The notes: generated by a model not told the origin, from the letters alone. A stretch of DNA of 62,013 nt from Deltaproteobacteria bacterium (GCA_021372815.1 JAJFTS010000149.1:1-62013), one strand, 5' to 3'; shown: positions 7,110-61,571, numbered from the stretch's first letter. Numbers and translations: made by a program.

Positions 7110-7206
7110 AAGTTCAACGTTCTATGTTCTATGTTCTAAGTTTCTGTACTTTGTACTCTGTACTAATAACTTTTTCCCCTTGCTACTTGACCCTTTGCTA
7201 CTATTG
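7110..7206 (+). repeat. Left boundary of cassette: 13-nt inverted repeat, 7-nt periodic array and short direct repeats
   Basis: AAGTTCAACGTTC (7110-7122). Heptads GTTCAAC GTTCTAT GTTCTAT GTTCTAA GTTTCTG, then GTACTTT GTACTCT GTACTAA (to 7166). CCTTGCTACTTGACCCT at 7178-7194. TTGCTACT occurs twice (7180, 7195). Confidence 0.8.
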
Positions 7207-8088
7207 TCACGGCAATGAAATTCTTTTATCCTTATGTTTCGCCCACCAGGTTTTGTATTCAGTCAGTTTATTTTGGATGGAGGCGATGTCGTTGTTTTGT
7301 TTATAACCAGCTAGTGCTTTAATATCTGCATCAGTGGCAATGTTATAATATTTCTGACGGTAATTTAAAAAGACGTTCATGCTGCGAACAAGATTATAGA
7401 TTAGGTCTGACTGCTTCACACTGCCTGTCTGCGATTGTGCATTCCATTTGTCGCACAGCCATAAACGGCGGTCCATTTCGTCCTTGATCCATTTAGATTG
7501 ATTGTCCTTTGTTCTTAAATCGGCAGATGTTACTGCTGGCAATGTCGAAGGAAACTTCACTAGGTACGCGTTCACAACTTCCACAGGTTCTGGCTTGGTC
7601 ATTTGCCCATCTTCATACTCTATGGAAATGACCTTGTTATTACTAATCCATCTATACACCCACCCTGCTGAACCAAATGTCATAATGTTATTACCATTTA
7701 CAACACGCATGATATACTGGTCACCAGGAATGCCTAAAGAAGTTCTAAAAGCTTTATCCAACTCATGCAGCAGCCATCTGTCCGAATCACCGCCCGTGTG
7801 CTGGGTGACTTGGACGTCCGGAGATACATTGCCGCTATTACTTAGGTACATTACACCGTATGTTACATCGTTATGATCTTGGAAATGGCCTGTGGCACTT
7901 AAAATATTTTTCTTTACAAGATGGGGTCCACCTGTTGCTGGTTCACCGGGCAAATCTTTTTCTGGTTTATCTAATTTGTAATTTCCAATATCTTGAAGTA
8001 TTAAATAGTCAGAAATATTTTGTGTAAAAGCTATAATTGGAAACAATAACAATCCAATCAATATTACAGCAAATTTTATTTTCCTCAC
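7207..8088 (-). CDS. Hypothetical secreted protein (passenger gene inside the ABC operon)
   Basis: GTG start behind GGAGGG. Signal peptide MRKIKFAVILIGLLLFPIIAFTQ. Visibly AT-richer than the flanking genes. No family recognised. Confidence 0.6.
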   Translation of the reverse strand: MRKIKFAVILIGLLLFPIIAFTQNISDYLILQDIGNYKLDKPEKDLPGEPATGGPHLVKKNILSATGHFQDHNDVTYGVMYLSNSGNVSPDVQVTQHTGGDSDRWLLHELDKAFRTSLGIPGDQYIMRVVNGNNIMTFGSAGWVYRWISNNKVISIEYEDGQMTKPEPVEVVNAYLVKFPSTLPAVTSADLRTKDNQSKWIKDEMDRRLWLCDKWNAQSQTGSVKQSDLIYNLVRSMNVFLNYRQKYYNIATDADIKALAGYKQNNDIASIQNKLTEYKTWWAKHKDKRISLP

Positions 8089-8118
8089 TTAGCCCTCCAG
8101 GTAATGAATTTATCCCAT

Positions 8119-8194
8119 GCTGGTTCAATCATTTTGATTGAACCGTCTATTTGCTCTACAATTTTCTGATTCAATCTACAAGATTGAACCAGCT
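8119..8194. repeat. Cluster of GGTTCAATC / GATTGAACC inverted repeats (alternative hairpins)
   Basis: GGTTCAATC (8122-8130) pairs with GATTGAACC (8136-8144). TCAATCT-aca-AGATTGA at 8171-8187. GCTGGTTCAATC (8119) can alternatively pair with GATTGAACCAGC (8183-8194). Confidence 0.7.
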
Positions 8195-8206
8195 TAAGAA
8201 ATAATT

Positions 8207-8491
8207 GTCATTCCCGCGCAGGCGGGAATCCAGTTTTTTGTCCTGGATGCCGTTCTTCAACGGCATGACAGAGGACATATTATTTATTTGTCATTACCCA
8301 ACGCATGCCCGGCGCATGCCTGAGTGATTGGGCAATCCAGTTTTCTTTTTTCCTGGATGCCGTTCTTCAACGGCATGACAGAGGACATATTATTTATTTG
8401 TCATTGCCCAACTCATGCCCGGCGCATGCCTGGGTGATTGGGCAATCCAGTTTGTTTTTATTTCCTGGATACCGGCCTGCGCGGGAATGAT
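8207..8491. repeat. REP/MITE-like composite: two 110-bp tandem units flanked by inverted copies of a GTCATTCCCGCGCAGGCGGGAATCCAG-type hairpin
   Basis: Unit TCCTGGATGCCGTTCTTCAACGGCATGACAGAGGACATATTATTTATTTGTCATT.CCCAAC.CATGCCCGGCGCATGCCTG.GTGATTGGGCAATCCAG starts at 8241 and 8351 (period 110, few mismatches). End hairpins at 8207-8233 and 8464-8491 are near reverse complements (24/26). Confidence 0.85.
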
Positions 8492-8496
8492 AACTT

Positions 8497-8562
8497 CCTT
8501 GCTGCTTGCCCTCCGTCACCTCGAACTTCAACTTTGAACCTTGAACCTGGAACGTTGAACTT
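8497..8562 (-). repeat. Right boundary of cassette: direct repeat plus inverted heptad array and 13-nt inverted repeat
   Basis: CCTTGCTGCTTGCCCT at 8497-8512. GAAC recurs every 7 nt (8523, 8536, 8543, 8550, 8557). GAACGTTGAACTT (8550-8562) is the exact reverse complement of 7110-7122. Confidence 0.8.
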
Positions 8563-10153: not shown

Positions 10154-11203
10154 TTAATTTTCCTTCTTCGGCACGGCCGGCTCACGCTCCGGTGATTGCG
10201 CTTCCTCGGATGCGGACTTCATCATCTTCGCTTTTCTTGCCTTCACCGCCTTCAGACGGTATTGAATGTAGGCGTCGCGAAAAGCCACGTAGGGATCAAC
10301 AGCCGCGTTTTTCAGGGACTCATAATCGCCGATTCTCAACGATGTGGCATTAACTTCCTGCCAAACCCTCACACCCAGCCAGTCGTACCACGGATCAATG
10401 TACGAGACGGGATACAGAAAATAATCTCCGGCAATGCTGACAGAGTCGCGCGGACTGGAAGGCCCCAGCACCGGCCAGACAATATAAAAGCCCTGCCCGA
10501 TGCCCCAGACGCCCAGGGTCTGCCCCAGATCGGTATCCTGCATTTGCAGATCCAGCTCCTTGCCGGAAGAAGGATCCAGCAGTCCCCCGATGCCCCAGAC
10601 GGTATTGACCGTAAAACGTCCGGCTTCCGTGGCCGCGCCGCTGAAATCGGCCTGCAGCAGGCAACTGAGGAAACGGGCGGGAAATCCCAGGTTGGAAAAG
10701 AAATTTTTTACGCTGATCCGGGCGGGTTCGGGAACGACTGCTTTGTAGCCCTGGGCGACAGGTTTGAGCGCCCAGAAATAAAGCTTGTCGTTGAACTGAT
10801 GCATGGCCCGGTTTACGGGTTCCAGAGGGTCGGCAATTTCCGCTTTCTCTTCCCCAACAGCCTTGCCGGTATCATTGTCCGAAACTTCATCTTCCTTGTA
10901 TTCTTCTTCCAGGGGATTTGCCGCGTCGGCTGCGGTTTGTACCGGAACATGAGCGGATGACGAAGCAAGTTCAACCGGCCCGGACGAAGACGCGGACAGA
11001 GCACCACCGGTGACGCCGGCGCTATGCGCGTACCCCGCCGTCAGAAAGATAAACAACACAATCACGGGTATGGACCCCAAAGCTTGCTTTGGGGTATTAT
11101 ACCCTCCGCTGTGCGGGATTGTTCGACTTACAAATTTCAATGCACGTCGTTTTTGAAATTTGAGTCTCACAATAATTTTAATGTAAAATTTCATATAGCC
11201 CAA
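10154..11203 (-). CDS. mlaA: MlaA/VacJ family lipid-transport outer-membrane protein (start codon uncertain)
   Basis: DPLEPVNRAMHQFNDKLYFWALKPVAQGYKAVVPEPARISVKNFFSNLGFP...TVWGIGGLLDP is a typical MlaA core. The first ~35 codons of the tracked ORF are made of a dispersed hairpin repeat. Alternative in-frame starts: ATG 11194, GTG 11170, TTG near 11087. Confidence 0.8.
   Translation of the reverse strand: MGYMKFYIKIIVRLKFQKRRALKFVSRTIPHSGGYNTPKQALGSIPVIVLFIFLTAGYAHSAGVTGGALSASSSGPVELASSSAHVPVQTAADAANPLEEEYKEDEVSDNDTGKAVGEEKAEIADPLEPVNRAMHQFNDKLYFWALKPVAQGYKAVVPEPARISVKNFFSNLGFPARFLSCLLQADFSGAATEAGRFTVNTVWGIGGLLDPSSGKELDLQMQDTDLGQTLGVWGIGQGFYIVWPVLGPSSPRDSVSIAGDYFLYPVSYIDPWYDWLGVRVWQEVNATSLRIGDYESLKNAAVDPYVAFRDAYIQYRLKAVKARKAKMMKSASEEAQSPEREPAVPKKEN
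11075..11094. repeat. 20-nt palindrome CCCCAAAGCTTGCTTTGGGG
   Basis: Two 9-nt arms are exact reverse complements around a central TT. Lies inside the mlaA 5-prime region. Confidence 0.7.
11115..11170 (-). repeat. Dispersed hairpin element E, copy A
   Basis: Minus strand reads GTGAGACTCAAATTTCAA-aaacgacgtgca-TTGAAATTTGTAAGTCGAACAATCCC, with a 10-bp perfect stem. Related copies at 19730, 19848 and 44077. Confidence 0.8.
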
Positions 11204-16298: not shown

Positions 16299-17720
16299 AT
16301 GAAGATAAAATTTTCTTATTTCATTGTATTATTACTTTTCATTTCCTGTTGTCCGAATACGCCGGAACTGATCAAGGACGAAGCCGAATTGCCTCAGAAT
16401 CACACCTCCTACGTAACCGAGGTCGTGAAAGAAGATTTCATTCTTGCCCGGGAAGATCAGGCAAGAATGAATGAAGACTACAATAAAACTTACTTTTCCG
16501 TTTGGCATAATCTCCAGCCGGTTCATTCCTCACCCGAAAAATTATCCTGGATTTTTAATAAATTCACACTGAGCCCCGGTTACGGTGAAAACAAGAAAAA
16601 ACATACCGCGGCCTGGTTAAAAAAACTTCAGCAAAGCGCTTCCGTGGAAAATTACCCCAATACGCTGAAGCCCGCGATTACAACCAGAAGCACCAATCTG
16701 CGGATGCTGCCCACAAACAGTCCCCATTTCTACAGTCGCGAGGGAAATGCCTCCGGCTGGCCTTTTGACAATCTGCAAATATCCTCCGTAGCCGCCAACA
16801 CACCCATTCTCATCTGTCACCTCAGCGCCGATAAATCATGGGCACTGGTGGAAACCAGTTTCGCCTTTGGCTGGCTGCCGGTGGAAGATTACGCGCTTGT
16901 TGATGAAGATTTCATCAAAACGTGGGAATCGGGCCGTTATGCGGTTATCGTCAAGGATAAAACTTCTATTTTTGATGTTGAAGGAAATTTCAGTCTGCGA
17001 ACATCGATCGGACAGATTTTTCCTTTAATCGGTGCGGAGGCGGACAAAAGGGAAATCCTCATCGCCTCGGCCGATAAAAACAACCGGGCGATCATCAAAC
17101 ATGGTTTCGTCTCACCTCAAATTATCGTTTCCCAGCCGCTGACCTTTACCTACGCCAATGCGGTAAAAATCGCCAATGAACTGATCGACGAACCGTACGG
17201 CTGGGGCGGTCTTTACGGCAATCGCGATTGTTCCGCGATGACCCGGGATTTTTTTGCTCCTTTCGGTATCTGGCTGCCCCGACATTCCGAAGATCAGGCC
17301 AAAAAAGTCGGAACCTATATCGATCTGGAAAATCTGGAACCGGAACAAAAAGAAAAAATCATTCTGGAGCAGGGAATCCCTTACTTAAGTTTGCTCTGGC
17401 GCAAAGGCCATGTCATGCTCTACATCGGCGCCAAAGACAATAAAGCGCTTATTTTTCATAATGTCTGGGGTTTGAAAACAGTGGACCTGTGCGGCCGGGA
17501 AGAAAGAAAAATCATCGGCAAGGCTGTGATCACGACTTTATGCCCCGGCGCCGAATTACCCTGTCTTGACCCGGAAGGATCGCTGCTGAAAAATATTTCG
17601 GCGATGACTATTCTTGGACCGGTCAAACAAAACCGACAAATACAGCCCGATGGCGCAATCTCGCAAGCCGTGCCCGAAAATAGCGGTCTCAGAAACAGAT
17701 CAGTATACCTTTATAATTAA
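16299..17720 (+). CDS. NlpC/P60 family peptidoglycan hydrolase with N-terminal and SH3-like domains (lipoprotein)
   Basis: Start re-picked at MKIKFSYFIVLLLFISCC (lipobox). Catalytic region YGWGGLYGNRDCSAMTRDFFAPFGIWLPRHSEDQ. Confidence 0.8.
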   Translation: MKIKFSYFIVLLLFISCCPNTPELIKDEAELPQNHTSYVTEVVKEDFILAREDQARMNEDYNKTYFSVWHNLQPVHSSPEKLSWIFNKFTLSPGYGENKKKHTAAWLKKLQQSASVENYPNTLKPAITTRSTNLRMLPTNSPHFYSREGNASGWPFDNLQISSVAANTPILICHLSADKSWALVETSFAFGWLPVEDYALVDEDFIKTWESGRYAVIVKDKTSIFDVEGNFSLRTSIGQIFPLIGAEADKREILIASADKNNRAIIKHGFVSPQIIVSQPLTFTYANAVKIANELIDEPYGWGGLYGNRDCSAMTRDFFAPFGIWLPRHSEDQAKKVGTYIDLENLEPEQKEKIILEQGIPYLSLLWRKGHVMLYIGAKDNKALIFHNVWGLKTVDLCGREERKIIGKAVITTLCPGAELPCLDPEGSLLKNISAMTILGPVKQNRQIQPDGAISQAVPENSGLRNRSVYLYN

Positions 17721-17721
17721 T

Positions 17722-18498
17722 ATGTATAAATATAAAATCTATTTAGAGTACGACGGAACCAATTACCACGGCTGGCAAACGCAAAAAAACGCCCGCAGCG
17801 TTCAGGATACTTTAATCAAAGCGGCTGAGAATTTTACGGGAGCGTCCGTTAAAGTTCAGGGCGCCGGAAGAACCGACGCCGGAGTACACGCGCTGGAGCA
17901 GGTAGCCCATCTGGAATCTCCCAAAAAAGTCCACCCGGAAACTCTGCGCATGGGAATTAATGATAATCTGCCGGCCAGCATCAATGTCCTGAAGGTGGAA
18001 AATGCGCCCGCACTCTTCCATGCCCGCCATCACGCCCTCAGCCGCAGCTATCTTTATCTGATTTCCCGCAGACGCACGGCTTTCGGCAAGCGTCATGTCT
18101 GGTGGGTCAAAGACAAACTCGATTGCGGCAAAATGAAACAGGCGCTGGATGTTTTTCAGGGATTCCACGATTTTGCCTCGTTTGCCGACAAAAGAATGGA
18201 TAAGGATGCCTCCACACAAGTCGACATCGAAGGAATATGGCTCAAAGAGTTTGACCATCTCATCGCCGTGCGGATTTCAGGTTCTCATTTCCTGTGGAAA
18301 ATGGTCAGGCGCATTGTCGGAGTGACTGTTGAGGTCGGCCGCGGCAATTTCACCAGACATGATGTGGAAAAAATGCTCAACTCTTATTCGGAAATACCGG
18401 CCAGATTCACCGCTCCGCCTTCCGGTCTTTTTCTGGAAAAAGTGCTATATGAACGCGACAAACTGCCGCCCATCAAAACGCCGATTTGCTTGTTTTGA
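17722..18498 (+). CDS. truA: tRNA pseudouridine(38-40) synthase TruA
   Basis: Start re-picked at MYKYKIYLEYDGTNYHGWQTQ. Catalytic GAGRTDAGVHA. Begins 2 nt after the upstream stop. Confidence 0.9.
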   Translation: MYKYKIYLEYDGTNYHGWQTQKNARSVQDTLIKAAENFTGASVKVQGAGRTDAGVHALEQVAHLESPKKVHPETLRMGINDNLPASINVLKVENAPALFHARHHALSRSYLYLISRRRTAFGKRHVWWVKDKLDCGKMKQALDVFQGFHDFASFADKRMDKDASTQVDIEGIWLKEFDHLIAVRISGSHFLWKMVRRIVGVTVEVGRGNFTRHDVEKMLNSYSEIPARFTAPPSGLFLEKVLYERDKLPPIKTPICLF

Positions 18499-18656
18499 TT
18501 CTGAAACCGGCTTCCCGCCTGCGCAGGCTGTGTCGTAATTAGGATGGATATCATTATCCGGAAAGATTTCTCCCGCTGGTCGAAATAACATTGAAAAGCA
18601 TTGTGACATAATCTCTGTGCGGAAATGACAACGAGGATGTAATTGCAATAAAAAAA

Positions 18657-19625
18657 TTAAACGTGATGATGTGAAATCTGCTCTTTTTTCTCTCCGGGCA
18701 GCAGGCAGCCGGCTTCGCAGATATCCGTACATTCGCCGTCGCAGGGTTCGGTGTGAATGGTAATGGTGGATTCGGGAAATTTGTCTCTGATACTTTTCTT
18801 CAATGTTTTGGTAATGTTATGGGAATCATGCACGGTCATTTGCGGAGCGACTTTAATATGAAATTCTATAAAACGGATATGACCGGCTTTGCGCGTGCGC
18901 AACTGATGAAAACCGTAAATCGCAGGCTCACGGCTGATAATATCGCGGATATAATTCTGCTCTTCCGGCGGGAGTTGAGCATCCATTAAATCGCGGATGG
19001 AATTGACCGTCAACTCGTAAGCAGCGTGCAAAATAAGAATGGCAACAAAAATCGCGGCAACGGGGTCAATCCAATGAATGTTGGGATCGGTAAAAAATTT
19101 ATGTCCCAGCCAGATAATGCTCAGAGCCAACATAACACCGGCAGACGTGTAGACATCGGTACGCAGATGCCAGGCGTCGGCCTGCAACGCGATAGAGTCG
19201 GCTTCTTTGCCCACCCGAAAAAGTTGTTGCGAAACAATAAAATTCATCACGGAAGAAAACAGCATGACGCCGACACCCCAGCTGGCATTTTCCATGACCT
19301 GAGGAGCGTTTAATTTTTTCAGCGCCTCCAAAATAATCCAGAATGCCGCTAAAAAGATAAGCAAAGCTTCAACAAAACCGGATATGTTTTCAATTTTGCC
19401 GTGGCCGAAAGGATGACGGTCATCGGCGGGGACACTGGATGTTTTCACGGAAAACATGGCGATAACCGCCGCCAGTAAATCCACGCCGGAATGAATCGCC
19501 TCCGATATGATCGAAACCGACCCGATGGCCATGCCGATCATCACTTTGAACAAAACGAGAAAGGAATTGGATGCCACCGATAGCATTGCCACTCTTTCTT
19601 TTTTCTGCTGTATGCTGGTCATCAA
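18657..19625 (-). CDS. Cation diffusion facilitator (CDF) family metal efflux transporter
   Basis: Six-TM CDF pattern (SEAIHSGVDLLA...HLRTDVYTS) with a cytoplasmic domain. Cys/His-rich tail EPCDGECTDICEAGC...SHHHV. Confidence 0.9.
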   Translation of the reverse strand: MMTSIQQKKERVAMLSVASNSFLVLFKVMIGMAIGSVSIISEAIHSGVDLLAAVIAMFSVKTSSVPADDRHPFGHGKIENISGFVEALLIFLAAFWIILEALKKLNAPQVMENASWGVGVMLFSSVMNFIVSQQLFRVGKEADSIALQADAWHLRTDVYTSAGVMLALSIIWLGHKFFTDPNIHWIDPVAAIFVAILILHAAYELTVNSIRDLMDAQLPPEEQNYIRDIISREPAIYGFHQLRTRKAGHIRFIEFHIKVAPQMTVHDSHNITKTLKKSIRDKFPESTITIHTEPCDGECTDICEAGCLLPGEKKEQISHHHV

Positions 19626-19729
19626 TAGTTACCGAATCTTTTAATCAATTGAACATTCTTTTGTCTTCTTTCTTAACTTTCTTTGATTCGCTTTGCAAGC
19701 CTCTAATTTTATGATACGAAAAACACCCC

Positions 19730-19799
19730 ATGAGACCCAAACTTTAGAAGCAAATAACCTAAGGGTCATTATAGGCGCACTGAAGTTTACAGGTCGTAG
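19730..19799 (+). repeat. Dispersed hairpin element E, copy B2 (large-loop variant)
   Basis: ATGAGACCCAAACTTTAG-(32-nt loop)-CTGAAGTTTACAGGTCGTAG. The stem keeps pairing through a T-to-C / A-to-G compensatory pair and one G-U wobble. Confidence 0.7.
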
Positions 19800-19847
19800 T
19801 GGGACTCTCTGAAAACGAGCTTTGCGAAGTTTGAAGAGCAAGGTGTA

Positions 19848-19902
19848 ATGAGACTCAAATTTCATAAGCGCAGCATAATGAAATTTGTAAGTCGAATTAT
19901 CC
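19848..19902 (+). repeat. Dispersed hairpin element E, copy B1
   Basis: ATGAGACTCAAATTTCAT-aagcgcagcata-ATGAAATTTGTAAGTCGAATTATCC, with a 10-bp perfect stem. Confidence 0.8.
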
Positions 19903-19924
19903 AATCCCGATGCATCGGGATTGG
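19901..19924. repeat. 24-nt perfect palindrome CCAATCCCGATGCATCGGGATTGG
   Basis: Exact reverse-complement symmetry. Appears inserted between two copies of GGATAATTC. Confidence 0.8.
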
Positions 19925-19950
19925 GAATTATCCCCGAAGCGGAGTGGGAC

Positions 19951-21039
19951 TTGGATAAAAAATTTCTTCTTTCTTATTTTAACGCATCGTCAAAAGATTG
20001 GCGGGACTGGCGCTGGCAATTCAAAAACCGCGTTACCAGGCCGGAACTTCTTGAAAGTCTTCTTGGAAAAACCGGCTTGAATGCGGAGAAGTTAAAAGCC
20101 GTGACATCCGTTTACCCTATGGCGGCAACGCCTTACTATCTTTCCCTGATGCAAACCCCTAAAATAAACGATCCTGTGCTTGTTCAGTGTGCACCCGATC
20201 CACGGGAAATTTCCAGTTCGGACAGGGCCGAAGACGACCCTCTGCAGGAAGATTGCCATATGCCGGTGCCCAAACTGGTGCACCGCTATCCCGACCGCTG
20301 TCTGGCCATCGTTACCGAACTTTGCGCCGTTTACTGCCGGCACTGCAACCGCAAACGTTTCTGGTCCCGCCCGAATCAGCCGGGATTAAAAACCCGTTTT
20401 CAGAAAATGATCGACTATCTTGCCGCCTCGCCGCAAATCAGAGAAGTCATTATTTCCGGCGGCGACCCGCTGATTTATGATGACCCTATTTTGGAAGGGC
20501 TGCTGGCCTCGCTGCGCGATATTCCGCACATTGAGGTTCTGCGCATCGGCAGCCGCGTTCCCGTCGTGATGCCTATGCGCGTCACCAAAGACCTCTGCCG
20601 GATGCTCAAAAAATACCGTCCCCTGTGGTTCAACACGCAGTTCAATCATCCGGCGGAAATTACACGTGACTCCGCAAGGGCCTGCCATATGCTGCAGGAA
20701 GCGGGAATCCCCGTTTCCAACCAGTCGGTCTTATTAAATGGCGTGAACAATTCCCCGGAGGTTATGAAAAAACTGCTTTACAATTTGCAGACAATATCCG
20801 TCCGTCCTTATTATCTTTTTCACTGCGATCCGGCCAGAGGCTGCACGCACTTTCGTACCAACCCGCAGGAAGGCGTGGCCCTGATGGAAAAAATATGGAG
20901 TCAATGCTCCGGTCTTTGCCTGCCGCAATACGTTTTGGACGTACCCGGAAGCGCCGGCAAAATACCTTTAAATGCGATGTCCAAAGCTATAAAAAACGAT
21001 TTAAAAAAACATAAACATTTTTTTGACAAGTTCCAATAA
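19951..21039 (+). CDS. epmB: KamA-family radical SAM lysine 2,3-aminomutase, EF-P beta-lysylation type (EpmB)
   Basis: CAVYCRHCNRK is the CxxxCxxC radical SAM motif, in a KamA-like core. Adjacent to efp and epmA. Start moved to TTG 19951 (GGAG 6 nt upstream), because the tracked TTG at 19921 lies inside a repeat palindrome. Confidence 0.8.
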   Translation: MDKKFLLSYFNASSKDWRDWRWQFKNRVTRPELLESLLGKTGLNAEKLKAVTSVYPMAATPYYLSLMQTPKINDPVLVQCAPDPREISSSDRAEDDPLQEDCHMPVPKLVHRYPDRCLAIVTELCAVYCRHCNRKRFWSRPNQPGLKTRFQKMIDYLAASPQIREVIISGGDPLIYDDPILEGLLASLRDIPHIEVLRIGSRVPVVMPMRVTKDLCRMLKKYRPLWFNTQFNHPAEITRDSARACHMLQEAGIPVSNQSVLLNGVNNSPEVMKKLLYNLQTISVRPYYLFHCDPARGCTHFRTNPQEGVALMEKIWSQCSGLCLPQYVLDVPGSAGKIPLNAMSKAIKNDLKKHKHFFDKFQ

Positions 21040-21104
21040 ATAGATTAGAGAAGCGCCAAGAGCAAAATAGCAATTTTGTTACATTAAGTAAGGAGAAAAA
21101 TTTT

Positions 21105-21668
21105 ATGTACACTGCCAGTGATTTAAGAAAGGGACTGCGGTTGAAAATCGATGGCGAACCTTATGTGATAACCGAATTTAATTTCGTCAAACCGGGCAAG
21201 GGGCAGGCATTGTACCGCACCAAACTCAAAAATATGATCAACGGAAATCAGTATGAACGCTCTTTCCGTTCCGTTGACACCTTTGAACCGGCGGATTTAC
21301 GGGAAAAGACCATGCAGTACCTTTACAAGGAAGGCGACAAATACTGTTTCATGGATAACGAAAACTATGAGCAGGTTTATCTGACGGAAGATCAGGTCGG
21401 TGACGCCGTGAATTTCATGACGGATAACATTGAAGTGGAAATTTTACTGTTCGAAGACCGGCCCATCGGCATCAGCCTGCCCAATTTTGTCGAACTGGTC
21501 GTGACGGAAGCCGAACCCTGGGCCAAGGGCGATACCGCCGCCGGTTCCACCAAACCGGTCAAGGTTCAGACCGGATATACTATTCAGGTGCCAACCTTCG
21601 TTACAGAAGGCGAAAAAATCAGGATAGATACGCGCACGGGAGAATACCTGACCAGAGTCAAGGGGTAG
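21105..21668 (+). CDS. efp: Elongation factor P
   Basis: MYTASDLRKGLRLKIDGEPYVITEFNFVKPGKGQALYRTKLKN. Carries the Lys of the KPGKGQA loop. AAGGAG RBS. Confidence 0.96.
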   Translation: MYTASDLRKGLRLKIDGEPYVITEFNFVKPGKGQALYRTKLKNMINGNQYERSFRSVDTFEPADLREKTMQYLYKEGDKYCFMDNENYEQVYLTEDQVGDAVNFMTDNIEVEILLFEDRPIGISLPNFVELVVTEAEPWAKGDTAAGSTKPVKVQTGYTIQVPTFVTEGEKIRIDTRTGEYLTRVKG

Positions 21669-21748
21669 AACAGCTTTCCAGAATACTCTCCTCGCCACCC
21701 GCTCTTTGCGCACCTCGCCTCTGAAATATTTTGTAAAGCTTCATAAAC

Positions 21749-22684
21749 ATGAATAAATTGCATCAAGACGATCATTTTCTTCTGGCGCGCAAGTCGCAAG
21801 TCCTGCAGACACGCGCCAAATTAATTCAAAGCATTCGTTTTTTCTTCATCAATAACGGATTTCTGGAGGTAGAAACTCCTTTAAGAATTCCCTCGCCGGC
21901 GCCGGAGGAAAATATTGACGCCCTGACGGCGGGAAACTGGTTTTTGCAGACATCGCCGGAACTTTGCATGAAGCGTCTGGTGGCGGCAGGCTATCCGCGG
22001 ATCTTTCAAATCAGCAAATGCTTTCGCGCCGGAGAAAGGGGCGACAGACATCTGCCGGAATACACCATGCTGGAATGGTACGTCGCCGGATTTAATTATC
22101 AACAGTTGATGGATCAGTGCGAAGCATTGATCCTGTCTGTGGCCGGGGATTTGGGCATTGCAGAAGTAATGCGGCAAAACCGGAAAATTAATTTGACGGC
22201 GCCGTGGGAAAGAATCTCTGTCGCGGAAGCGTTTTCAAAATACGCGCCGCTTACTTCTGAAGACGCTCTGGTGCGCGATTTTTTTGACGAAACTCTGGTT
22301 GATCACGTCGAACCTAACTTGGGCATGAACAAACCGGCTTTTATTTACGATTATCCGGCCAGGCTCGCATCGCTGGCCAAGTTAAAGGTGGAAAATCCCG
22401 CCGTCGGCGAACGCTTTGAACTTTATATCGGTGGGATGGAAATAGCCAACGGCTTTTCGGAACTGACTGATGCCGGCGAACAAAGGCAGCGTTTTGAAGA
22501 AGCGTTGAAAACACGCGCTGCTAAAAACTGGGCGCGCTACGAAATGCCGGAAAAATTTCTCCGGTCGCTGGATTCATTGCCGCCCTGCGCCGGAATCGCG
22601 CTGGGGATTGACCGGCTGGTGATGTTGATGACCGGCGCGGCAACCATTGATGATGTAGTCGCGTTCACACCGGAAAATCTTTGA
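21749..22684 (+). CDS. epmA: EF-P--(R)-beta-lysine ligase EpmA (GenX/PoxA, LysRS-class-II paralog)
   Basis: FLEVETP..., LQTSPELCMKRLVAAGYPRIFQISKCFRAGERGDRHLPEYTMLEWY, GIALGIDRLVML. Confidence 0.88.
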   Translation: MNKLHQDDHFLLARKSQVLQTRAKLIQSIRFFFINNGFLEVETPLRIPSPAPEENIDALTAGNWFLQTSPELCMKRLVAAGYPRIFQISKCFRAGERGDRHLPEYTMLEWYVAGFNYQQLMDQCEALILSVAGDLGIAEVMRQNRKINLTAPWERISVAEAFSKYAPLTSEDALVRDFFDETLVDHVEPNLGMNKPAFIYDYPARLASLAKLKVENPAVGERFELYIGGMEIANGFSELTDAGEQRQRFEEALKTRAAKNWARYEMPEKFLRSLDSLPPCAGIALGIDRLVMLMTGAATIDDVVAFTPENL

Positions 22685-39172: not shown

Positions 39173-39284
39173 CGCGATGTCCTGAGCAACTTTTTACAAA
39201 CACTTTAACAAACTTGATATCCAAAGTAGAACGCGGTGGCGAGGAGTCGGCTCCGCAGGCGTATATGGAAATACGTCAAGGAAG

Positions 39285-39317
39285 CCTGCCCCAGCATACG
39301 CCGGGGCAGACTTTTTT
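39285..39317 (+). terminator. Plus-strand terminator-like hairpin pointing into the leader of the small membrane-protein gene
   Basis: CTGCCCC (39285-39291), loop agcatacgcc, GGGGCAG (39303-39309), then ACTTTTTTG. Preceded by hairpins GGAG-tcgg-CTCC (39242-39253) and CGTAT-atggaa-ATACG (39259-39274). Confidence 0.5.
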
Positions 39318-39337: not shown

Positions 39338-39346
39338 TTTATACCA
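39338..39346 (-). promoter_or_regulatory. Extended -10 box TGGTATAAA
   Basis: Minus strand reads ATGGTATAAA, about 165 nt upstream of the ORF start at 39172. Confidence 0.35.
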
Positions 39347-39351
39347 TTTCT

Positions 39352-39373
39352 AAATCAAAGATGATATTGAGGC
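39352..39373 (+). repeat. 22-nt dispersed repeat AAATCAAAGATGATATTGAGGC (copy 1)
   Basis: 21/22 identical to 42823-42844. Confidence 0.75.
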
Positions 39374-39465
39374 GGCTAGGCGAAGGCGACGAGACGTATT
39401 TTTACATACGTTGAGGAAGCCGACAACGACGCCAACGAAAATAGCGCTTTGAGTTAGGAATGGTA

Positions 39466-42768: not shown

Positions 42769-42822
42769 AATTTTTCCTTATGAAAAAGGTTACTGGAGCA
42801 AATTATACATAATACCCCCTTT

Positions 42823-42844
42823 AAATCAAAGATGATCTTGAGGC
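42823..42844 (+). repeat. 22-nt dispersed repeat AAATCAAAGATGATCTTGAGGC (copy 2)
   Basis: 21/22 identical to 39352-39373. A TATAAT (minus strand, plus-strand 42802-42807) lies next to it, upstream of trmJ. Confidence 0.75.
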
Positions 42845-43968: not shown

Positions 43969-44076
43969 ATTTGGGCCGGAATGCGTAACCCCGCCGCACG
44001 CAGCGGGGTATCCAAAGGAACTGCGCTCCAAGGGGCGGGGAATTAGACCCACGTTTATCCCGCTCAGCTTCGCCTC

Positions 44077-44133
44077 GGGGATAATTCGACCATCAAATTT
44101 CAGTGCACTTTGTTTCTGAAATTTGGGTCTCAT
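44077..44133 (-). repeat. Dispersed hairpin element E, copy C
   Basis: Minus strand reads ATGAGACCCAAATTTCAG-aaacaaagtgca-CTGAAATTTGATGGTCGAATTATCCCC. Begins at the stop codon of the 44133-44486 gene. REP-like hairpins (CCCCGC..GCGGGG at 43990-44009) follow. Confidence 0.8.
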
Positions 44134-44486
44134 TAAAGTATTTTTCTGAGACAGGATTGCAGTGCATATCTGGTCATAATTTCCAGATAATGAGGCGCGC
44201 GCGCCATCCAGGCGCCGAGAAAAAAAACCACGCAGGACAGAGCGTAGGCCGTCGGACCGCCGATAACAAAAATAAGAGGCTCCCGCCACCATACGGCCAG
44301 AACACTCAGAGCGGCTATCGCCGGCCAGCCCATCACAAAACTCAACACCATCAGAATCAATCCGGCAATCAGCCGCAGGGTAGGACGTTCTTTGAATTCA
44401 CTCAAATCGGCAGGATGGGCCATGACGGTCTGAACGAATTTCTTTCCGGCAAGATATCGGCTAATCTTTTTTCGAATCATAAACAC
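44133..44486 (-). CDS. Hypothetical membrane protein (117 aa)
   Basis: Three hydrophobic segments. No family recognised. Confidence 0.5.
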   Translation of the reverse strand: MFMIRKKISRYLAGKKFVQTVMAHPADLSEFKERPTLRLIAGLILMVLSFVMGWPAIAALSVLAVWWREPLIFVIGGPTAYALSCVVFFLGAWMARAPHYLEIMTRYALQSCLRKIL

Positions 44487-45815: not shown

Positions 45816-45997
45816 AACGATTCCTTCCCCCTCTTATTTTTTATAATGTCCGTTTCTCGATTTTTCCCCGAATTATCCAACCCTTGAATATTTTTAAGGT
45901 TAATTATCTCACCCGCTCACGAAAAACAAGACTTTATTTGCGTAAGCAAATACATGTTGTTCGTGTCAGGACAATATTTCGGAATAAGCCTCCACTA

Positions 45998-54833: not shown

Positions 54834-55601
54834 ATGAATAAAATTATATGTATAGCAAACCAAAAAGGTGGTGTAGGTAAAACCACCACGGCGATAAATT
54901 TATCTGCTTCCCTGGCGGCGGCAGAAAAAAAAACTTTGCTCATTGACGGCGATTCTCAGGGCAATTCTACAAGCGGTATTGGAACGGACAGAAACGCTTT
55001 TCAGGCGGCTAATTTATACCACGCCATGATCGGCCATGTGCCTCTTAAAGATGTGATTATTCACACGGCCATACCCCATCTGGACGTCGTGCCGTCCAAT
55101 CAGGATCTTATAGGAATTGAGTTTGAGTTTATCGGTCTGGAAGAAAAAGAAAAGCGGCTGAAGAATTTGCTGACTTCTCTGGACAGTCATTATGATTTCA
55201 TCATCATTGATTGCCCTCCGTCGCTGGGCATGATGACCGTCAATGCGCTTGCCGCTTCCGACTATTTGATTGTTCCCTTGCAGTGCGAATATTTCGCGAT
55301 GGAGGGATTGGGATATTTGCTCAACACCGTCAAGCTGGTGAAAGCGCAATTAAATCCCAACCTGGCTTTAGGCGGCATTTTACTGACGATGTTCGATCAG
55401 CGCAATTTATTATCTCATCGCGTATCGGATGATGTGCGCAAACATTTCGGCGATAAGGTTTTTAAAACGGTTATTCCGCGCAACGTGCGACTTTCGGAAT
55501 GTCCCAGTCACGGGTTGCCCATTATTCTTTACGATATTAAATCGCGCGGAGCTTTGGCTTATATGGAAATGGCCAGGGAAATCATTCAAGGGGGATTGTA
55601 A
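54834..55601 (+). CDS. parA: Chromosome partitioning ATPase ParA/Soj
   Basis: Deviant Walker A NQKGGVGKTTT. IIIDCPPSLG. Confidence 0.93.
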   Translation: MNKIICIANQKGGVGKTTTAINLSASLAAAEKKTLLIDGDSQGNSTSGIGTDRNAFQAANLYHAMIGHVPLKDVIIHTAIPHLDVVPSNQDLIGIEFEFIGLEEKEKRLKNLLTSLDSHYDFIIIDCPPSLGMMTVNALAASDYLIVPLQCEYFAMEGLGYLLNTVKLVKAQLNPNLALGGILLTMFDQRNLLSHRVSDDVRKHFGDKVFKTVIPRNVRLSECPSHGLPIILYDIKSRGALAYMEMAREIIQGGL

Positions 55602-56456
55602 ATGGCACAAAAAAATGTGCTGGGAAAGGGACTCGGTGCAATATTTCCGGATTTACTAAACGAATCAGACAAGAAAAAACAATTTTCCTGCGGAATTGAA
55701 GAGCTTCGTCCCAATCGCTATCAGCCCCGGAAAAATTTTAACGACGACCGGCAAAAGGATTTGATCGCTTCCGTAAAAAGCAGCGGCATTATCCAGCCGA
55801 TCATTGTCCGCAAGGCGGAAGATGGTTATGAAATTATCGCCGGCGAACGACGATGGCGGGCAGCTCAGGCTGCGGGTCTGAAAGATGTGCCCATCGTCAT
55901 CCGCGAAGCGACCGACATGGAAGCCGCGGAAATTTCTCTTATTGAAAATATTCAACGGGAAGAACTCAATCCGCTGGAAGAAGCGGATGCCTATGTAACG
56001 CTCGCGGAAAAATTTCAACTTTCCCAGGAAGAAATTTCTCAACGCGTGGGAAAGGATCGCTCCACGATAGCCAATACCATCCGTCTTTTAAAACTGCCGG
56101 CTCAGGTCAAAACCGCGCTGACGGAAAAGGTCATTTCTGCAGGCCATGCCCGTTGTTTACTGGCTTGTTCGTCACTTGAAGATCAAATCGCGGCGCTTCA
56201 TTTAATTTTAAAAAAAGATCTAAATGTTCGGGAAACAGAACGCTTCATTCAAAAAACTAAAAATCAGCCGGCAGAAAAAAAACCCGTCGCCAAGAAAGAC
56301 CGGTTTCTGAATGATTTGGAAAAGGCCCTGTCAGCCAAATTGCTGGCGAAGGTGCAAATTAACGGTTCGGATAAAAAAGGCTTGATTGAAATCAGATATA
56401 CATCTATGGATGAACTGAACCGATTATCGGGTTTTATCCTGGATGAATTATCATAA
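55602..56456 (+). CDS. parB: Chromosome partitioning protein ParB/Spo0J
   Basis: IQPIIVRK...YEIIAGERRWRAA (ParB box), HTH region STIANTIRLLKLP. Confidence 0.93.
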   Translation: MAQKNVLGKGLGAIFPDLLNESDKKKQFSCGIEELRPNRYQPRKNFNDDRQKDLIASVKSSGIIQPIIVRKAEDGYEIIAGERRWRAAQAAGLKDVPIVIREATDMEAAEISLIENIQREELNPLEEADAYVTLAEKFQLSQEEISQRVGKDRSTIANTIRLLKLPAQVKTALTEKVISAGHARCLLACSSLEDQIAALHLILKKDLNVRETERFIQKTKNQPAEKKPVAKKDRFLNDLEKALSAKLLAKVQINGSDKKGLIEIRYTSMDELNRLSGFILDELS

Positions 56457-56468
56457 ATTAATGTTTCC

Positions 56469-56496
56469 AAGCTTATCCACAGATGTGGATAAGCTT
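56469..56496. promoter_or_regulatory. Inverted pair of perfect DnaA boxes in a 28-nt palindrome
   Basis: AAGCTTATCCACAGATGTGGATAAGCTT. TTATCCACA at 56473-56481 and TGTGGATAA at 56484-56492, 24 nt before the dnaA ATG. Confidence 0.8.
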
Positions 56497-56515
56497 GTTT
56501 ATAAAGGTTGTTATA

Positions 56516-57865
56516 ATGGACGCGTTTTGGGACAAAACCAGTAAAATTATTCAGGAAAAAATTAGTAAGCAAAATTTTGACACGTGGATAAAACCGATCA
56601 AAATTGTTGCCATGGAAGACCAGCGTGTGCAGCTGGCAGTGCCCAATAAATTTTTCAAAGACTGGCTTTTGGATAACTATTGCTCAACCATTAAACAATC
56701 ACTGAAAGATGCGGCAGGGCTGGAGGTGGATATTGATTTTGTTTTATCTAAAAATCAAGAAAAACAATCGGAACCGGCTACCAAGCAAAATGCTCACTCT
56801 AAAAGTGCCTCAGCCCCCATGCACTCCAAAAGTAAAAGTTTTTCTTTCCTGAATGAAAACTATAATTTTGACCGGTTCGTTGTCGGTTCGTGTAATCAGT
56901 TTGCCCATGCCGCTTCCATTGCCGTTGCCAAACAACCGGCCAAAAATTACAATCCTCTTTTTATATATGGCGGATCCGGACTGGGTAAAACTCATCTGCT
57001 TAATGCCATCGGACTGCTGGCCTCTTCCATGCATCCGACATTGAACATCATGTATGTTTCCGCGGAAGAATTCATGAATGAAATGATCAATTCCATTCGT
57101 TACGACCGGATGCCCAAGTTTAGGGAAAAATATCGCAATATCAGTTGTCTGTTAATTGACGATATTCATTTTCTGGCGGGAAAAGACAGGACTCAGGAAG
57201 AATTTTTCCACACTTTCAACACCCTGCACGACTCCGGAAAACAGATTGTTGTCACCAGTGACAAATTTCCAAAAGATATCCCGAATTTGGAGAGCAGGCT
57301 GCGTTCCCGTTTTGAATGGGGGCTGATTGCCGATATTCAACCACCGGAAATAGAGACAAAAATTGCCATTATTGAAAAAAAGATACAGGAAAATAAAATA
57401 GAATTACCCAATAATGTCATTCATTACATCGCCTCACACGTTGAATCCAATATCCGTGAGCTGGAAGGATTTTTGGTCAGAATAGGCGCTTATTCATCTT
57501 TAACAGGAAGGGAAATAGACCTGGATTTGGTAAAGGAAGTATTACGGAGTCTGGTGAAATATAATAAAAAAGGTGAAATCAGTATTGAAGAAATCATGAA
57601 GGTTATTTCGGGAAAATTAAATATAAAAATATCGGATATTAAAGCTCATAATAAGAATAAAAATATTGTCTTTGCACGCCAGTTGGTGATGTATTTATCA
57701 AGAAAGCATACCAACTATTCTTTCCCGGATATAGGACAAAAAGTAGGTGGACGTGATCACTCCACAGTGATTTATGCTTATAATAAAGTATTAAACAACA
57801 TTAAAACGGATGTGAAGTTAAAAAACTTAATTCAGGAAATTGAGGATATTTTAATCAACAAATAA
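56516..57865 (+). CDS. dnaA: Chromosomal replication initiator DnaA
   Basis: Start re-picked at MDAFWDKTSKIIQEK. GGSGLGKTHLL, LLIDDIHFLAGK. C-terminal DNA-binding VFARQLVMYLSRKHTNYSFPDIGQKVGGRDHSTVIYA. Confidence 0.97.
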   Translation: MDAFWDKTSKIIQEKISKQNFDTWIKPIKIVAMEDQRVQLAVPNKFFKDWLLDNYCSTIKQSLKDAAGLEVDIDFVLSKNQEKQSEPATKQNAHSKSASAPMHSKSKSFSFLNENYNFDRFVVGSCNQFAHAASIAVAKQPAKNYNPLFIYGGSGLGKTHLLNAIGLLASSMHPTLNIMYVSAEEFMNEMINSIRYDRMPKFREKYRNISCLLIDDIHFLAGKDRTQEEFFHTFNTLHDSGKQIVVTSDKFPKDIPNLESRLRSRFEWGLIADIQPPEIETKIAIIEKKIQENKIELPNNVIHYIASHVESNIRELEGFLVRIGAYSSLTGREIDLDLVKEVLRSLVKYNKKGEISIEEIMKVISGKLNIKISDIKAHNKNKNIVFARQLVMYLSRKHTNYSFPDIGQKVGGRDHSTVIYAYNKVLNNIKTDVKLKNLIQEIEDILINK

Positions 57866-58028
57866 TTAACTTTTTGTGTCAAATTTATAAACAGGCAAAG
57901 ATTGATTTAAGGTTTTAATTTTTTTTAAGAAATATTATTAATCAACATATCAACAGGGATTACTATTAATACTATTTTTTTATATAAGGAAAAAATCAAA
58001 AGAAGAATAATAAAGACAAGGAGGAAGT
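57866..58028. promoter_or_regulatory. Very AT-rich dnaA-dnaN spacer (candidate DNA-unwinding element / oriC part)
   Basis: About 80% A+T by eye. Degenerate DnaA-box-like 9-mers TTATAAACA (57885-57893) and ATATCAACA (57947-57955). Confidence 0.45.
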
Positions 58029-59138
58029 ATGGAATTTAAAATCAATAGAGAAACCTTTCTTGACGGTATTCAAAAAACATTAGGTATTGTTGAGAAAAAA
58101 ACGACAATACCTATTTTGAATAATATTCTTATCAAAGCCGATGCCAATAAAATTAAAATTATAGCTACCGACAGAGAGATAATTTTAATTTCCGATTATG
58201 AGGCGGAAGTATTGGAAAAAGGTGAAATTACGATTTCAGCTAAAAAAATGTATGAGATGATCCGGGAAATACAAGGAGAAGTAATAAATTTTATTCAAAA
58301 AAACAATATTGTCAAAATATCAGCCCAAAGAGCTTTTTATAAAATACCCGGATTGCCGGCAGATGATTTTCCCAGTATTGCCGATGATCAGGATATCCAA
58401 CTTTTTAAGGTTCAGGGAAGTGTCATGAAGGATTTGATCAGTAAGACGTCATTTGCCATGGCGACTGATGAAACAAGAAAAAACTTGAACGGCGTTTTAT
58501 TGGAAGCGGGTATGGATGGGGCTAATCATTTATTAAGAATGGTTGCCACAGATGGACATCGTCTGGCCATGGCTAAAGGTTTCACATCCGAAGCCACTTT
58601 CAAGACGGGAAAAGGAATTATCATTCCCCGTAAAGGATTAATGGAAATCAAAAAGGTTATTGATGAGAATGAAGAAGTTAAAATTGGTTTAAATAAGAAT
58701 ATGTTTGTCGTGAAAACGGAGAATACTCTTTTGAAAGTCAGCCTGGTGGATGCAGATTACCCTGACTATAAAAAAGTTATTCCAACCGAAAAAGGAATAA
58801 CTGTTACGCTGGAGAAGGAATATTTTCTGCATGCGTTAAGAAGAATGAGTGTTGTTTCTTCGGAAAGATACGGTGGTGTGATTCTTTCATTTTCCGAAGG
58901 TAAATTAACATTGAATTCTACCAATCTTGATGTTGGTGAAGCAACAGAAGAAATAGATATTATTTACAGTGGAGAGGTTATCGATAGCGGCTTTAATGTC
59001 AATTATTTAATTGATGCGATCTCCGGGGCTAATAAAGACCAGATTGTATTTGAAGTCGGTATGGGATTAAAACCTTCCGTGATTAAACAGGCGGATGATG
59101 ACAATTATTTGTGCATTATTATGCCTTTAAAAATATAG
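58029..59138 (+). CDS. dnaN: DNA polymerase III beta sliding clamp
   Basis: 369 aa. ILNNILIKA...ATDGHRLA...DYPDYKKVIP. Confidence 0.95.
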   Translation: MEFKINRETFLDGIQKTLGIVEKKTTIPILNNILIKADANKIKIIATDREIILISDYEAEVLEKGEITISAKKMYEMIREIQGEVINFIQKNNIVKISAQRAFYKIPGLPADDFPSIADDQDIQLFKVQGSVMKDLISKTSFAMATDETRKNLNGVLLEAGMDGANHLLRMVATDGHRLAMAKGFTSEATFKTGKGIIIPRKGLMEIKKVIDENEEVKIGLNKNMFVVKTENTLLKVSLVDADYPDYKKVIPTEKGITVTLEKEYFLHALRRMSVVSSERYGGVILSFSEGKLTLNSTNLDVGEATEEIDIIYSGEVIDSGFNVNYLIDAISGANKDQIVFEVGMGLKPSVIKQADDDNYLCIIMPLKI

Positions 59139-59156
59139 CAGCAGAGAGGAAGTTGA

Positions 59157-61571
<2,415 letters not shown>

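Follow-up and report, generated by a model that had tools for sequence, protein, structure and literature searches.

A stretch of 62,013 nt from a Deltaproteobacteria bacterium (GCA_021372815.1 JAJFTS010000149.1; referred to below as the window) contains four copies of a short hairpin, which we call M1. Analysis of the window, together with loci fetched from other genomes (labelled with L-numbers), showed that M1 belongs, as one module among several, to an undescribed family of non-coding hairpin repeats with a modular and nested build. It is probable that this is a mobile family of the same kind as the repetitive extragenic palindromes (REP), the bacterial interspersed mosaic elements (BIME), the BOX elements and the miniature inverted-repeat transposable elements (MITE), and not a regulatory RNA dedicated to epmB, the gene that follows two of the copies.

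The M1 hairpin and its covariation

A covariance model (R1) was trained on 121 distinct M1 copies, all from other genomes, and run on the window with filters off. Exactly four matches were obtained:

11122-11169, minus strand: M1 hairpin of copy A, about 72 bits (E about 1e-18)
19735-19794, plus strand: M1 hairpin of copy B2, 23.9 bits, with a 21-nt insertion
19849-19896, plus strand: copy B1, a canonical 48-nt M1, 71.7 bits (E = 8.7e-19)
44085-44132, minus strand: M1 hairpin of copy C, about 72 bits (E about 1e-18)

Four copies by chance are excluded. A repeat finder independently paired the same four copies (I1, I2, I18), and they align beyond the hairpin, sharing TAA/TTG 5′ of it and GTCGAA-TTATCC/CAATCC 3′ of it. 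A sequence-only reading had previously placed them at 11115-11170(-), 19730-19799(+), 19848-19902(+) and 44077-44133(-), and much of what it described was recovered: the innermost pair varies yet always pairs (A-T in A, T-A in B1 and G-C in C), an internal T-A pair is changed to C-G in B2, and the helix can be extended by GAC and GTC. Other details needed correction. The hairpin is real, but the core given as about 55 nt is 48 nt long, from TGAGAC to GTCGAA, and B2 occupies 19731-19799. The frame of the proposed consensus holds, except that the pyrimidine (Y) after TGAGAC pairs with the third linker base (T-A or C-G) and leaves a 2-nt bulge. The single T·G wobble reported for B2 is present, but a C·A mismatch at the base of the stem had been overlooked, and the enlargement of the loop, described as an expansion to 32 nt, is an inserted 20-nt mini-element, M5 (19755-19774), that is found in 44 places elsewhere.

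The 121 copies were aligned (alignment A2) on the structure ...(((((((((((.(((..((....))...))))))))))..)))).... and 15 pairs were tested. It was found that 98.6% of the cells pair, that both sides change in 12 of the 15 pairs, and that 264 cells are compensatory; none of 500 shuffles paired as well, and slid controls paired at 23-42%. In the long helix, both partners vary in 9 of the 10 pairs, and pairing is nevertheless kept. The base of the helix covaries (GAC/GTC in 102 copies, AAC/GTT in 19), as does the pair between columns 7 and 44, in which Y joins the last linker base. The claim that the stem is kept by compensatory changes is therefore borne out by heavy covariation. The claimed strand-specific wobble asymmetry is also present, with 37 G·T wobbles against 5 A·C mismatches, or 33 against 4 in the pairs that were unconstrained by the collection criteria.

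The M1 unit is AT-rich (GC content about 0.3) and consists of a 14-bp interrupted helix and an apical mini-hairpin. The apical 12 nt form a 2-bp mini-helix over a triloop, usually C-GNA-G (ACGAAGT in 22 copies, ACGTAGT in 9, ACGCAGT in 8 and GCGAAGC in 7); C-(G/A)NA-G triloops are overwhelmingly the rule in the apical loops, and every module of the family described below uses them. Outside the helix, a T1-A48 closing pair lies over tandem G·A (TGA...GAA), and the frame T1 G2 A3 A5 C6 ... G T. G A A is invariant. The 3-4 bases that flank M1 also covary (TAA/TTA, ATTG/CAAT, TAG/CTA, CAG/CTG, CAA/TTG). These data support selection for the folding of the stated strand as a single strand. The RNA fold z-score is -5.0, and the opposite strand folds as well under DNA parameters.

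Arrays, nesting and insertion of the repeats

Inspection of the flanks of all matches showed that M1 is embedded in head-to-tail arrays with other short hairpins, and that smaller modules lie inside the loops of larger ones. The modules are as follows:

M1: 48 nt, TGAGAC...GTCGAA hairpin
M1′: TGAAAC...GTTGAA variant, in which a CCAATT stem is frequent
M2: TGACACTCGCT...AAGTGG(T)AA
M3: CCAATAGCCAAAGGCTATTGG or CCAATCCCGATnnATCGGGATTGG; 21/24 nt
M4: TTATCCC...GCGAAGC...GGGAy
Terminal unit: CAATCCCG-nn-triloop-nn-CGGAGGGTAT...ATACCCGTGA
M5: 20-nt mini-element, TAACCTAAAGGTCACTATAG

M1, M1′ and M2 share the frame T-GA-NAC...GTN-GA-A, with a T-A closing pair, tandem G·A and a covarying helix. The size classes of the terminal unit (about 85, 111 and 135-140 nt) correspond to 0, 1 or 2 hairpins nested in its GGGTAT/ATACCC stem. 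M5 inserts 3′ of G-Y-G-N-A in hairpin loops: its 44 copies in the fetched loci almost always have this position, in the loop of M1, M4 or another M5.

The region 19730-19950 of the window is such a head-to-tail array, M1(with M5)-M2-M1-M3-M4, in which each unit folds as its own hairpin, and copies A and C belong to longer composites. The units, with B1 as given above, are:

19731..19799, plus strand: B2, an M1 (TGAGACC...GGTCGTAG) whose apical loop is interrupted by M5, with the wobble and the mismatch noted above
19755..19774, plus strand: M5, TAACCTAAGGGTCATTATAG, 20 nt, in the B2 loop 3′ of GCAAA
19800..19848, plus strand: M2, TGGGACTCTCTGAAAACGAGC...AGAGCAAGGTGTAA, a different hairpin in the common head/tail frame, with 88-92% identical relatives in L036, L070 and L006
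19897..19927, plus strand: M3, the frame TTAT, the perfect 24-nt palindrome CCAATCCCGATGCATCGGGATTGG (19901-19924) and GAA
19928..19950, plus strand: M4-like, TTATCCCCGAAGCGGAGTGGGAC, the last array unit, with GGAG at 19941-19944
11062..11172, minus strand: copy A, a complete 'type 1' composite between mlaC and mlaA
43985..44137 (start approximate), minus strand: copy C, a 'type 2' composite

Copy A consists, in order, of a TTG head, M1, a CAATCCCGCacaGCGGAGGG hairpin, a GGGTAT...ATACCC stem with one nested hairpin, and a CCCGTGA end. Copy C has a TTTAA head that overlaps the stop codon of the open reading frame (ORF) 44133-44486, followed by M1, M4 (44055-44084) and a repeated tail that extends to about 43985 and recurs in L037, L039, L043 and L097.

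The 24-nt palindrome had been read as an insertion with a target duplication, represented by the flanking GGATAATTC pair. It is never solitary; all 62 strand-wise matches have the frame yTAT...rAA-yTATCC, and the identical 24-mer is also present in L061 and L102. Because the same frame is found at every occurrence of the palindrome, the GGATAATTC pair is the frame of a module junction and not a demonstrable target duplication, and its two sides often differ. Elsewhere in the window, at 45869-45897, a sequence CGAATTATCCAACCC is a solitary piece of the junction frame GTCGAATTATCC and may be the relic of a decayed array. In a Bacteroidales genome (L047:1500-2100), tandem units of about 125 nt, each with an M1-derived hairpin and CAATCCCGATAGCGnAGCGTATCGGGAT, resemble a minisatellite-like amplification of a composite.

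Orthologous pairs of loci, found by an all-against-all BLAST of the loci, contained filled and empty sites. The spacer between the CDF gene and epmB is about 45 nt long and free of elements in L012 (Smithella sp. Yes70-30), whereas that of the window is about 240 nt longer. Conversely, the epmB-efp spacer has a type-1 composite in L012 and none in the window; the inserted sequence comprises TTGTGAGAC...CCCGTGA and nothing else, is bordered by ...ATTTTG and CTCT..., and has left no bases duplicated. In L102, a 250-nt array separates two genes whose distance in the window is 7 nt. Two further pairs come from genomes that are about 90% identical: L068 and L089 each have a composite that is missing from the other, and a 300-nt array of L081 is absent from L048.

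The ends of the insertions are compatible with 5′-TTG...GTGA-3′ or with a TTTTTAA-TGAGACC head, the composite right end being CCCGTGA. The 5′ flanks are T-rich (TTTA, TTTTG, TTTCA, and TTTAA or TTTAT in many copies) with no single motif, and the boundaries are ambiguous by 1-3 nt. In four comparisons of filled and empty sites we found neither a target site duplication (TSD) nor terminal inverted repeats (TIR); the end sequences TTGTGAGAC... and ...CCCGTGA bear no inverted-repeat relation to each other. The arrays are non-autonomous mobile DNA that inserts precisely at T-rich sites without target duplication. That the elements are non-autonomous follows from the head-to-tail distance, which is always 83-237 nt; among 57 head-tail elements, no long or autonomous version and no orphan end was present.

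Clustering of 719 nearby ORFs, all against all, gave housekeeping families only and no protein family that recurs beside the arrays. An inverted pair in L036 was considered as a possible transposase-bearing element and rejected, as it flanks an ArsR-type regulator instead. At one locus (L004:7000-7400) the Shine-Dalgarno-ATG and first codons of the downstream gene are present on both sides of the array, as GGAGGAATcacATGtcTTACTTTTtCAAT and GGAGGAATactATGgcATACTTTTcCAAT. This resembles a duplication of about 30 nt of the 5′ end of the gene, tied to the insertion, and was not seen at the other filled sites.

Occurrence in other genomes and position relative to genes

One genome per species (596 Gb) was scanned for the exact pattern TGAGACNCAAAN{20,30}TTTGNNNGTCGAA, in which the inner stem and the loop are free. 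More than 116 loci were found, compared with about 12 chance matches expected by simple arithmetic. Among the matches listed, and according to record titles, about 88 loci are in metagenome-assembled genomes (MAGs) of Smithella, Smithellaceae, Syntrophaceae or 'delta proteobacterium', 24 are in MAGs of Bacteroidota, and one locus each is in contigs of Omnitrophota, Planctomycetales, Dehalococcoidales and an 'archaeon', of which the last two are short contigs that may be mis-binned. The assignment to Bacteroidota is genuine: genes of the type IX secretion system (T9SS) are present, with PorM/GldM at one locus and a T9SS sorting domain at another. Within 707 kb of fetched loci R1 finds 179 copies of M1, compared with the 4 in the 62 kb of the window.

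The window is syntenic with L012 over 17041-22148, at 72-85% nucleotide identity. A contig with 100% identity is present in the metagenome SRR15035646. It represents a Smithella-like genome in which intergenic DNA is occupied by these repeats, and a closely related subfamily is present in some Bacteroidales. The composite tails of Bacteroidales and Smithella differ at about 3 of 72 positions, which implies transfer between phyla. A scan of viral contigs gave one match only, in an IMG/VR phage contig (L118); at 10547-10640 of this contig, an M1 and an M4-like hairpin lie between two genes of the phage tail region, antisense to a 474-aa gene and directly upstream of its Shine-Dalgarno sequence.

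At all three loci of the window the repeats are in the sense orientation: copy A between mlaC and mlaA, the B array upstream of epmB, and copy C immediately downstream of the stop codon of a small membrane ORF (mlaC, mlaA and epmB were named from Pfam matches). The sequence-only reading had stated that this orientation is that of the adjacent transcription unit, which is correct for the window but not in general. By crude ORF calling, about 77 arrays have ORFs on both sides, with 23 arrays sense, 28 antisense, 17 convergent and 9 divergent, and the orientation relative to flanking genes is about random. Many copies directly follow a terminator-like hairpin and T-run, and others are antisense, 6-22 nt from a start codon and just upstream of Shine-Dalgarno sites. 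No class of genes was associated with the arrays, and the neighbours are unrelated. The random orientation, the copies adjacent to terminators and the gain or loss between related species contradict the proposal that the element is a separate structured RNA linked to the sense strand of neighboring units.

The start of epmB had been placed at TTG 19921, which is probably wrong; an N-terminal alignment with the L012 ortholog fits TTG 19951 better. The ten extra codons from TTG 19921 would be encoded by modules M3 and M4, and the GGAG of M4 lies 6 nt upstream of the probable start. In a similar way, a 349-aa ORF (10154-11203) passes through copy A; therefore, the true start of mlaA is probably downstream, at about 11080 or later.

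Other features of the window were also observed. The region 7110-8562, and especially 8205-8493, contains a different repeat family, with tandem 110-nt units (8236-8345 and 8346-8455) bounded by inverted GTCATTCCCGCGCAGGCGGGAATCCAG arms, and a related arm is present at 18504-18527; a 33-nt inverted repeat encloses the whole block, within which lies an ORF (7207-8088, minus strand) without a Pfam match. Hairpin repeats of the form GGCGTAT...ATACGTC and GACGTAT...ATACGTTGAGGAAGCC, at 39240-39290 and 39360-39430, are common to at least eight fetched loci, and in L016, L056 and L103 this repeat carries M5 after GCGTA. A 33-nt direct repeat, ATACCnnnTTTAAATCAAAGATGATnTTGAGGC (39341-39373 and 42812-42844, 85% identical), is found just upstream of two plus-strand genes and also in several loci, and may be a common promoter or leader, or another repeat. 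Finally, 54834-61571 contains parA/parB, dnaA (56483-57865), dnaN and gyrB, and the cumulative GC skew has its minimum at about 54-58 kb; this gene order and skew minimum indicate that the window contains the chromosomal replication origin.

Explanations and relation to known repeats

In the explanation that we favor, the folded single strand would be the substrate that is recognized for mobilization by a trans-acting enzyme. Propagation would then be restricted to copies in which both the hairpin and the conserved frame are retained, and the stem would covary as a result. The substrate is most likely single-stranded DNA, bound by a hairpin-specific enzyme. DNA is favored over RNA because the orientation is independent of transcription, because copies lie behind terminators, and because C-(G/A)NA-G triloops are present in every module. 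Sequences such as d(GCGAAGC), with GNA loops, give DNA mini-hairpins of unusual stability, whereas among selected RNA hairpins GNRA or UNCG tetraloops are favored. The best available analogy would be an HUH/Y1-type enzyme, as in IS200/IS605 and in the system of REP and REP-associated tyrosine transposases (RAYT). Arrays inside transcription units would be co-transcribed and would fold as RNA hairpins; this concerns the leader of epmB, the spacer between mlaC and mlaA, and the 3′ end of ORF 44133-44486. The GGAG upstream of the likely epmB start would come from the array. Where an array is transcribed, effects at the RNA level are plausible, although apparently incidental.

Several points weigh against this explanation. 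All of the data are from MAGs, and the reading was confined to 8-kb windows around the matches. The collection of copies introduced an ascertainment bias, in that the patterns fixed TGAGAC, CAAA/TTTG and GTCGAA or demanded 7 base pairs. The pairs that escape it are limited to the inner 3 of the long helix and to those of the apical 2-bp helix; these are paired at 93-100%. The G·T asymmetry and the covariation of the hairpin are equally compatible with selection at the RNA level. No mobilizing enzyme was identified, and neither an autonomous copy nor a Y1 transposase was present in about 810 kb around the elements. There was also no significant replication-strand bias: by local GC skew, a noisy proxy, the top strand lies on the G-rich strand in 65 arrays and on the C-rich strand in 49 (p = 0.16).

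A further account, which we regard as possible but doubtful, is that self-nesting mobile hairpins of 20-50 nt enter loops and junctions at a G-Y-G-N-A or T-GA...GA-A frame and form arrays by accretion. Such hairpins would have crossed between Desulfobacterota and Bacteroidota, possibly borne by phage, and would be moved by a putative hairpin-specific enzyme. This enzyme may be of a new type, since neither RAYT-type nor IS200-type signatures were found. Phage may be a vehicle for spread between hosts.

We consider it unlikely that the repeats are a MITE derived from IS200/IS605, that is, a palindrome-associated transposable element (PATE), or REP-like partners of a RAYT, moved as one strand by a TnpA-type 'peel and paste' reaction. 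The absence of TSD and TIR, the precise insertion, the asymmetric ends with hairpins at or near both of them, the strand-specific folding and the insertion 3′ of a short specific or T-rich sequence (TTTAA or TTTAT before many copies) are all shared with PATE. The left end of IS200/IS605 elements inserts 3′ of a specific tetra- or pentanucleotide and is subject to a lagging-strand bias (PMC5027513); the position of M5, 3′ of the pentanucleotide G-Y-G-N-A, matches the insertion rule, but the T-rich 5′ flanks of the composites show no single motif, and no significant lagging-strand bias was detected here. Nor was an autonomous relative or a Y1 transposase seen, the hairpins of the left and right ends are unrelated in sequence, and the build is modular and nested, in all of which the repeats differ from PATE.

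The comparison with REP leads to a similar result. One end of the REP palindrome bears an unpaired tag, GTAG or CGTC, and the sequences occur predominantly as inverted (head-to-head or tail-to-tail) dimers (PMC3733652). The repeats of the window resemble REP and BIME in being short, high-copy, extragenic imperfect palindromes in mosaic arrays with no coding capacity, in having a conserved unpaired tag beside a variable, covarying stem with frequent G·T pairs, and in a copy number that varies between related genomes. However, the heads here are TGAGAC/TGAAAC and the tails GTCGAA/GTTGAA, and GTAA/GTAG occurs only at some module junctions and not as a GTAG/CGTC tag. Neighboring modules follow one another head to tail on one strand and do not form inverted dimers; the unit is 48 nt rather than the usual 20-40 nt; about 810 kb of sequence surrounding the arrays showed no RAYT; and the family is in Desulfobacterota (Syntrophia) and Bacteroidota rather than in Proteobacteria. 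Membership in IS200/IS605 or REP/RAYT is therefore not established, as no GTAG/CGTC tag, inverted dimers, significant replichore bias or, around the arrays, transposase was found.

A structured cis-acting RNA (a leader, an mRNA stabilizer or attenuator, or a small RNA) that is selected at the RNA level and acts on the adjacent unit is improbable. The wobble asymmetry on the stated strand and the RNA fold z-score are what such an RNA would give; moreover, all three window loci are sense, the B array would lie in the epmB leader with its GGAG 6 nt before the likely start, and for REP elements a role as RNA has been argued from the same evidence (PMC3733652). It does not fit, however, with 23 sense against 28 antisense arrays, with the many copies that lie after terminator hairpins with T-runs or antisense upstream of Shine-Dalgarno sites, or with orthologous sites that are filled or empty, including the empty CDF/epmB spacer of L012. 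In addition, no gene class is associated, the same modules are in two phyla and a phage, the opposite strand folds as well under DNA parameters, and the loops are triloops and not GNRA or UNCG tetraloops.

A double-stranded site for a host protein (nucleoid structuring, gyrase or IHF, or an operator), multiplied by recombination, is very improbable. In its favor, the frame motifs are invariant, the location is intergenic, and BIMEs bind gyrase and IHF (PMC3733652). Such a site would conserve sequence and not pairing, whereas 9 of the 10 long-helix pairs change on both sides; the G·T/A·C asymmetry is unexpected under duplex recognition, and precise insertions at unrelated sites need a mechanism of mobility. 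An integron-like attC recombination site is hardly credible: the variant tail GTTGAAY fits the R′ consensus GTTRRRY, and the bulged hairpin and head-to-tail arrays are suggestive, but the 5′ arm TGAAAC misfits RYYYAAC and pairs with the tail only via tandem G·A, and the copies are scattered over the chromosome, without cassettes or a neighboring intI.

Other kinds of element were compared with the mobile hairpin family. The BOX elements of Streptococcus pneumoniae are modular intergenic repeats of the form boxA-boxB(n)-boxC. They have a similar head, variable internal modules and tail, predicted stable hairpins and no coding capacity; there is no sequence relationship, and the family described here has many more module types, nesting in loops and a spread across phyla. 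The small dispersed repeats (SDR) of cyanobacteria (Elhai et al. 2008) are reportedly mobile palindromic units of about 20-27 nt that are nested in each other and in larger repeats. The 20-nt M5 and the 21/24-nt M3 behave in this way, but sequences and host phyla are unrelated, G-Y-G-N-A in triloop hairpins is targeted here, and 48-nt modules with a shared frame coexist with the small ones.

Several candidates were rejected. A classical DDE-derived MITE was rejected on the lack of TIR and TSD, and an intrinsic terminator because M1 is AT-rich and is followed by TTATCC, CAATCC or another module, a terminator scan of the array being negative. In a CRISPR array, different modules would not abut without spacers as they do here. 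By inspection, a hammerhead (no CUGA before TGAG), a K-turn (no 3-nt bulge beside the G·A pairs) and group II intron ends (for which the element is much too small) were also rejected. An Rfam search at the gathering score gave 0 matches in the whole window, and in E-value mode it gave nothing real at all three loci; the best sub-threshold match was sR58 (23.9 bits against a threshold of 55). A literature search on repeats of Smithella and Syntrophus found nothing.

The Rfam searches and the membership tests uphold the statement of the sequence-only reading that the element matches no Rfam family, attC site, CRISPR repeat or classical IS end. The covariance-model scan of relatives that it had proposed gave many copies with heavy covariation, but what emerges is a dispersed mobile repeat family. 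The alternative that it had named, a terminal repeat of a known IS or MITE family, comes near to this result: the element is a module of a dispersed MITE- or REP-like family, but that family is undescribed. The kind of element is known (REP/BIME, BOX, SDR, PATE). What sets this family apart from them is its frame, the joining of modules into head-to-tail arrays, the nesting in loops at a defined pentanucleotide and the cross-phylum spread.

These repeats have consequences for annotation. They break MAG assemblies, with many copies at contig ends, and they create spurious ORFs and false starts, as with the 349-aa ORF over copy A and TTG 19921 for epmB; they can also be mistaken for structured RNAs. 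The sharp frame and abundant covariation make the family clean material for the study of how very small hairpin repeats move, and further assets are the filled and empty sites at about 90% genome identity, a 20-nt element that targets loops, and near-identical copies in two phyla. Finding the responsible enzyme could reveal a new hairpin-specific DNA-processing activity.

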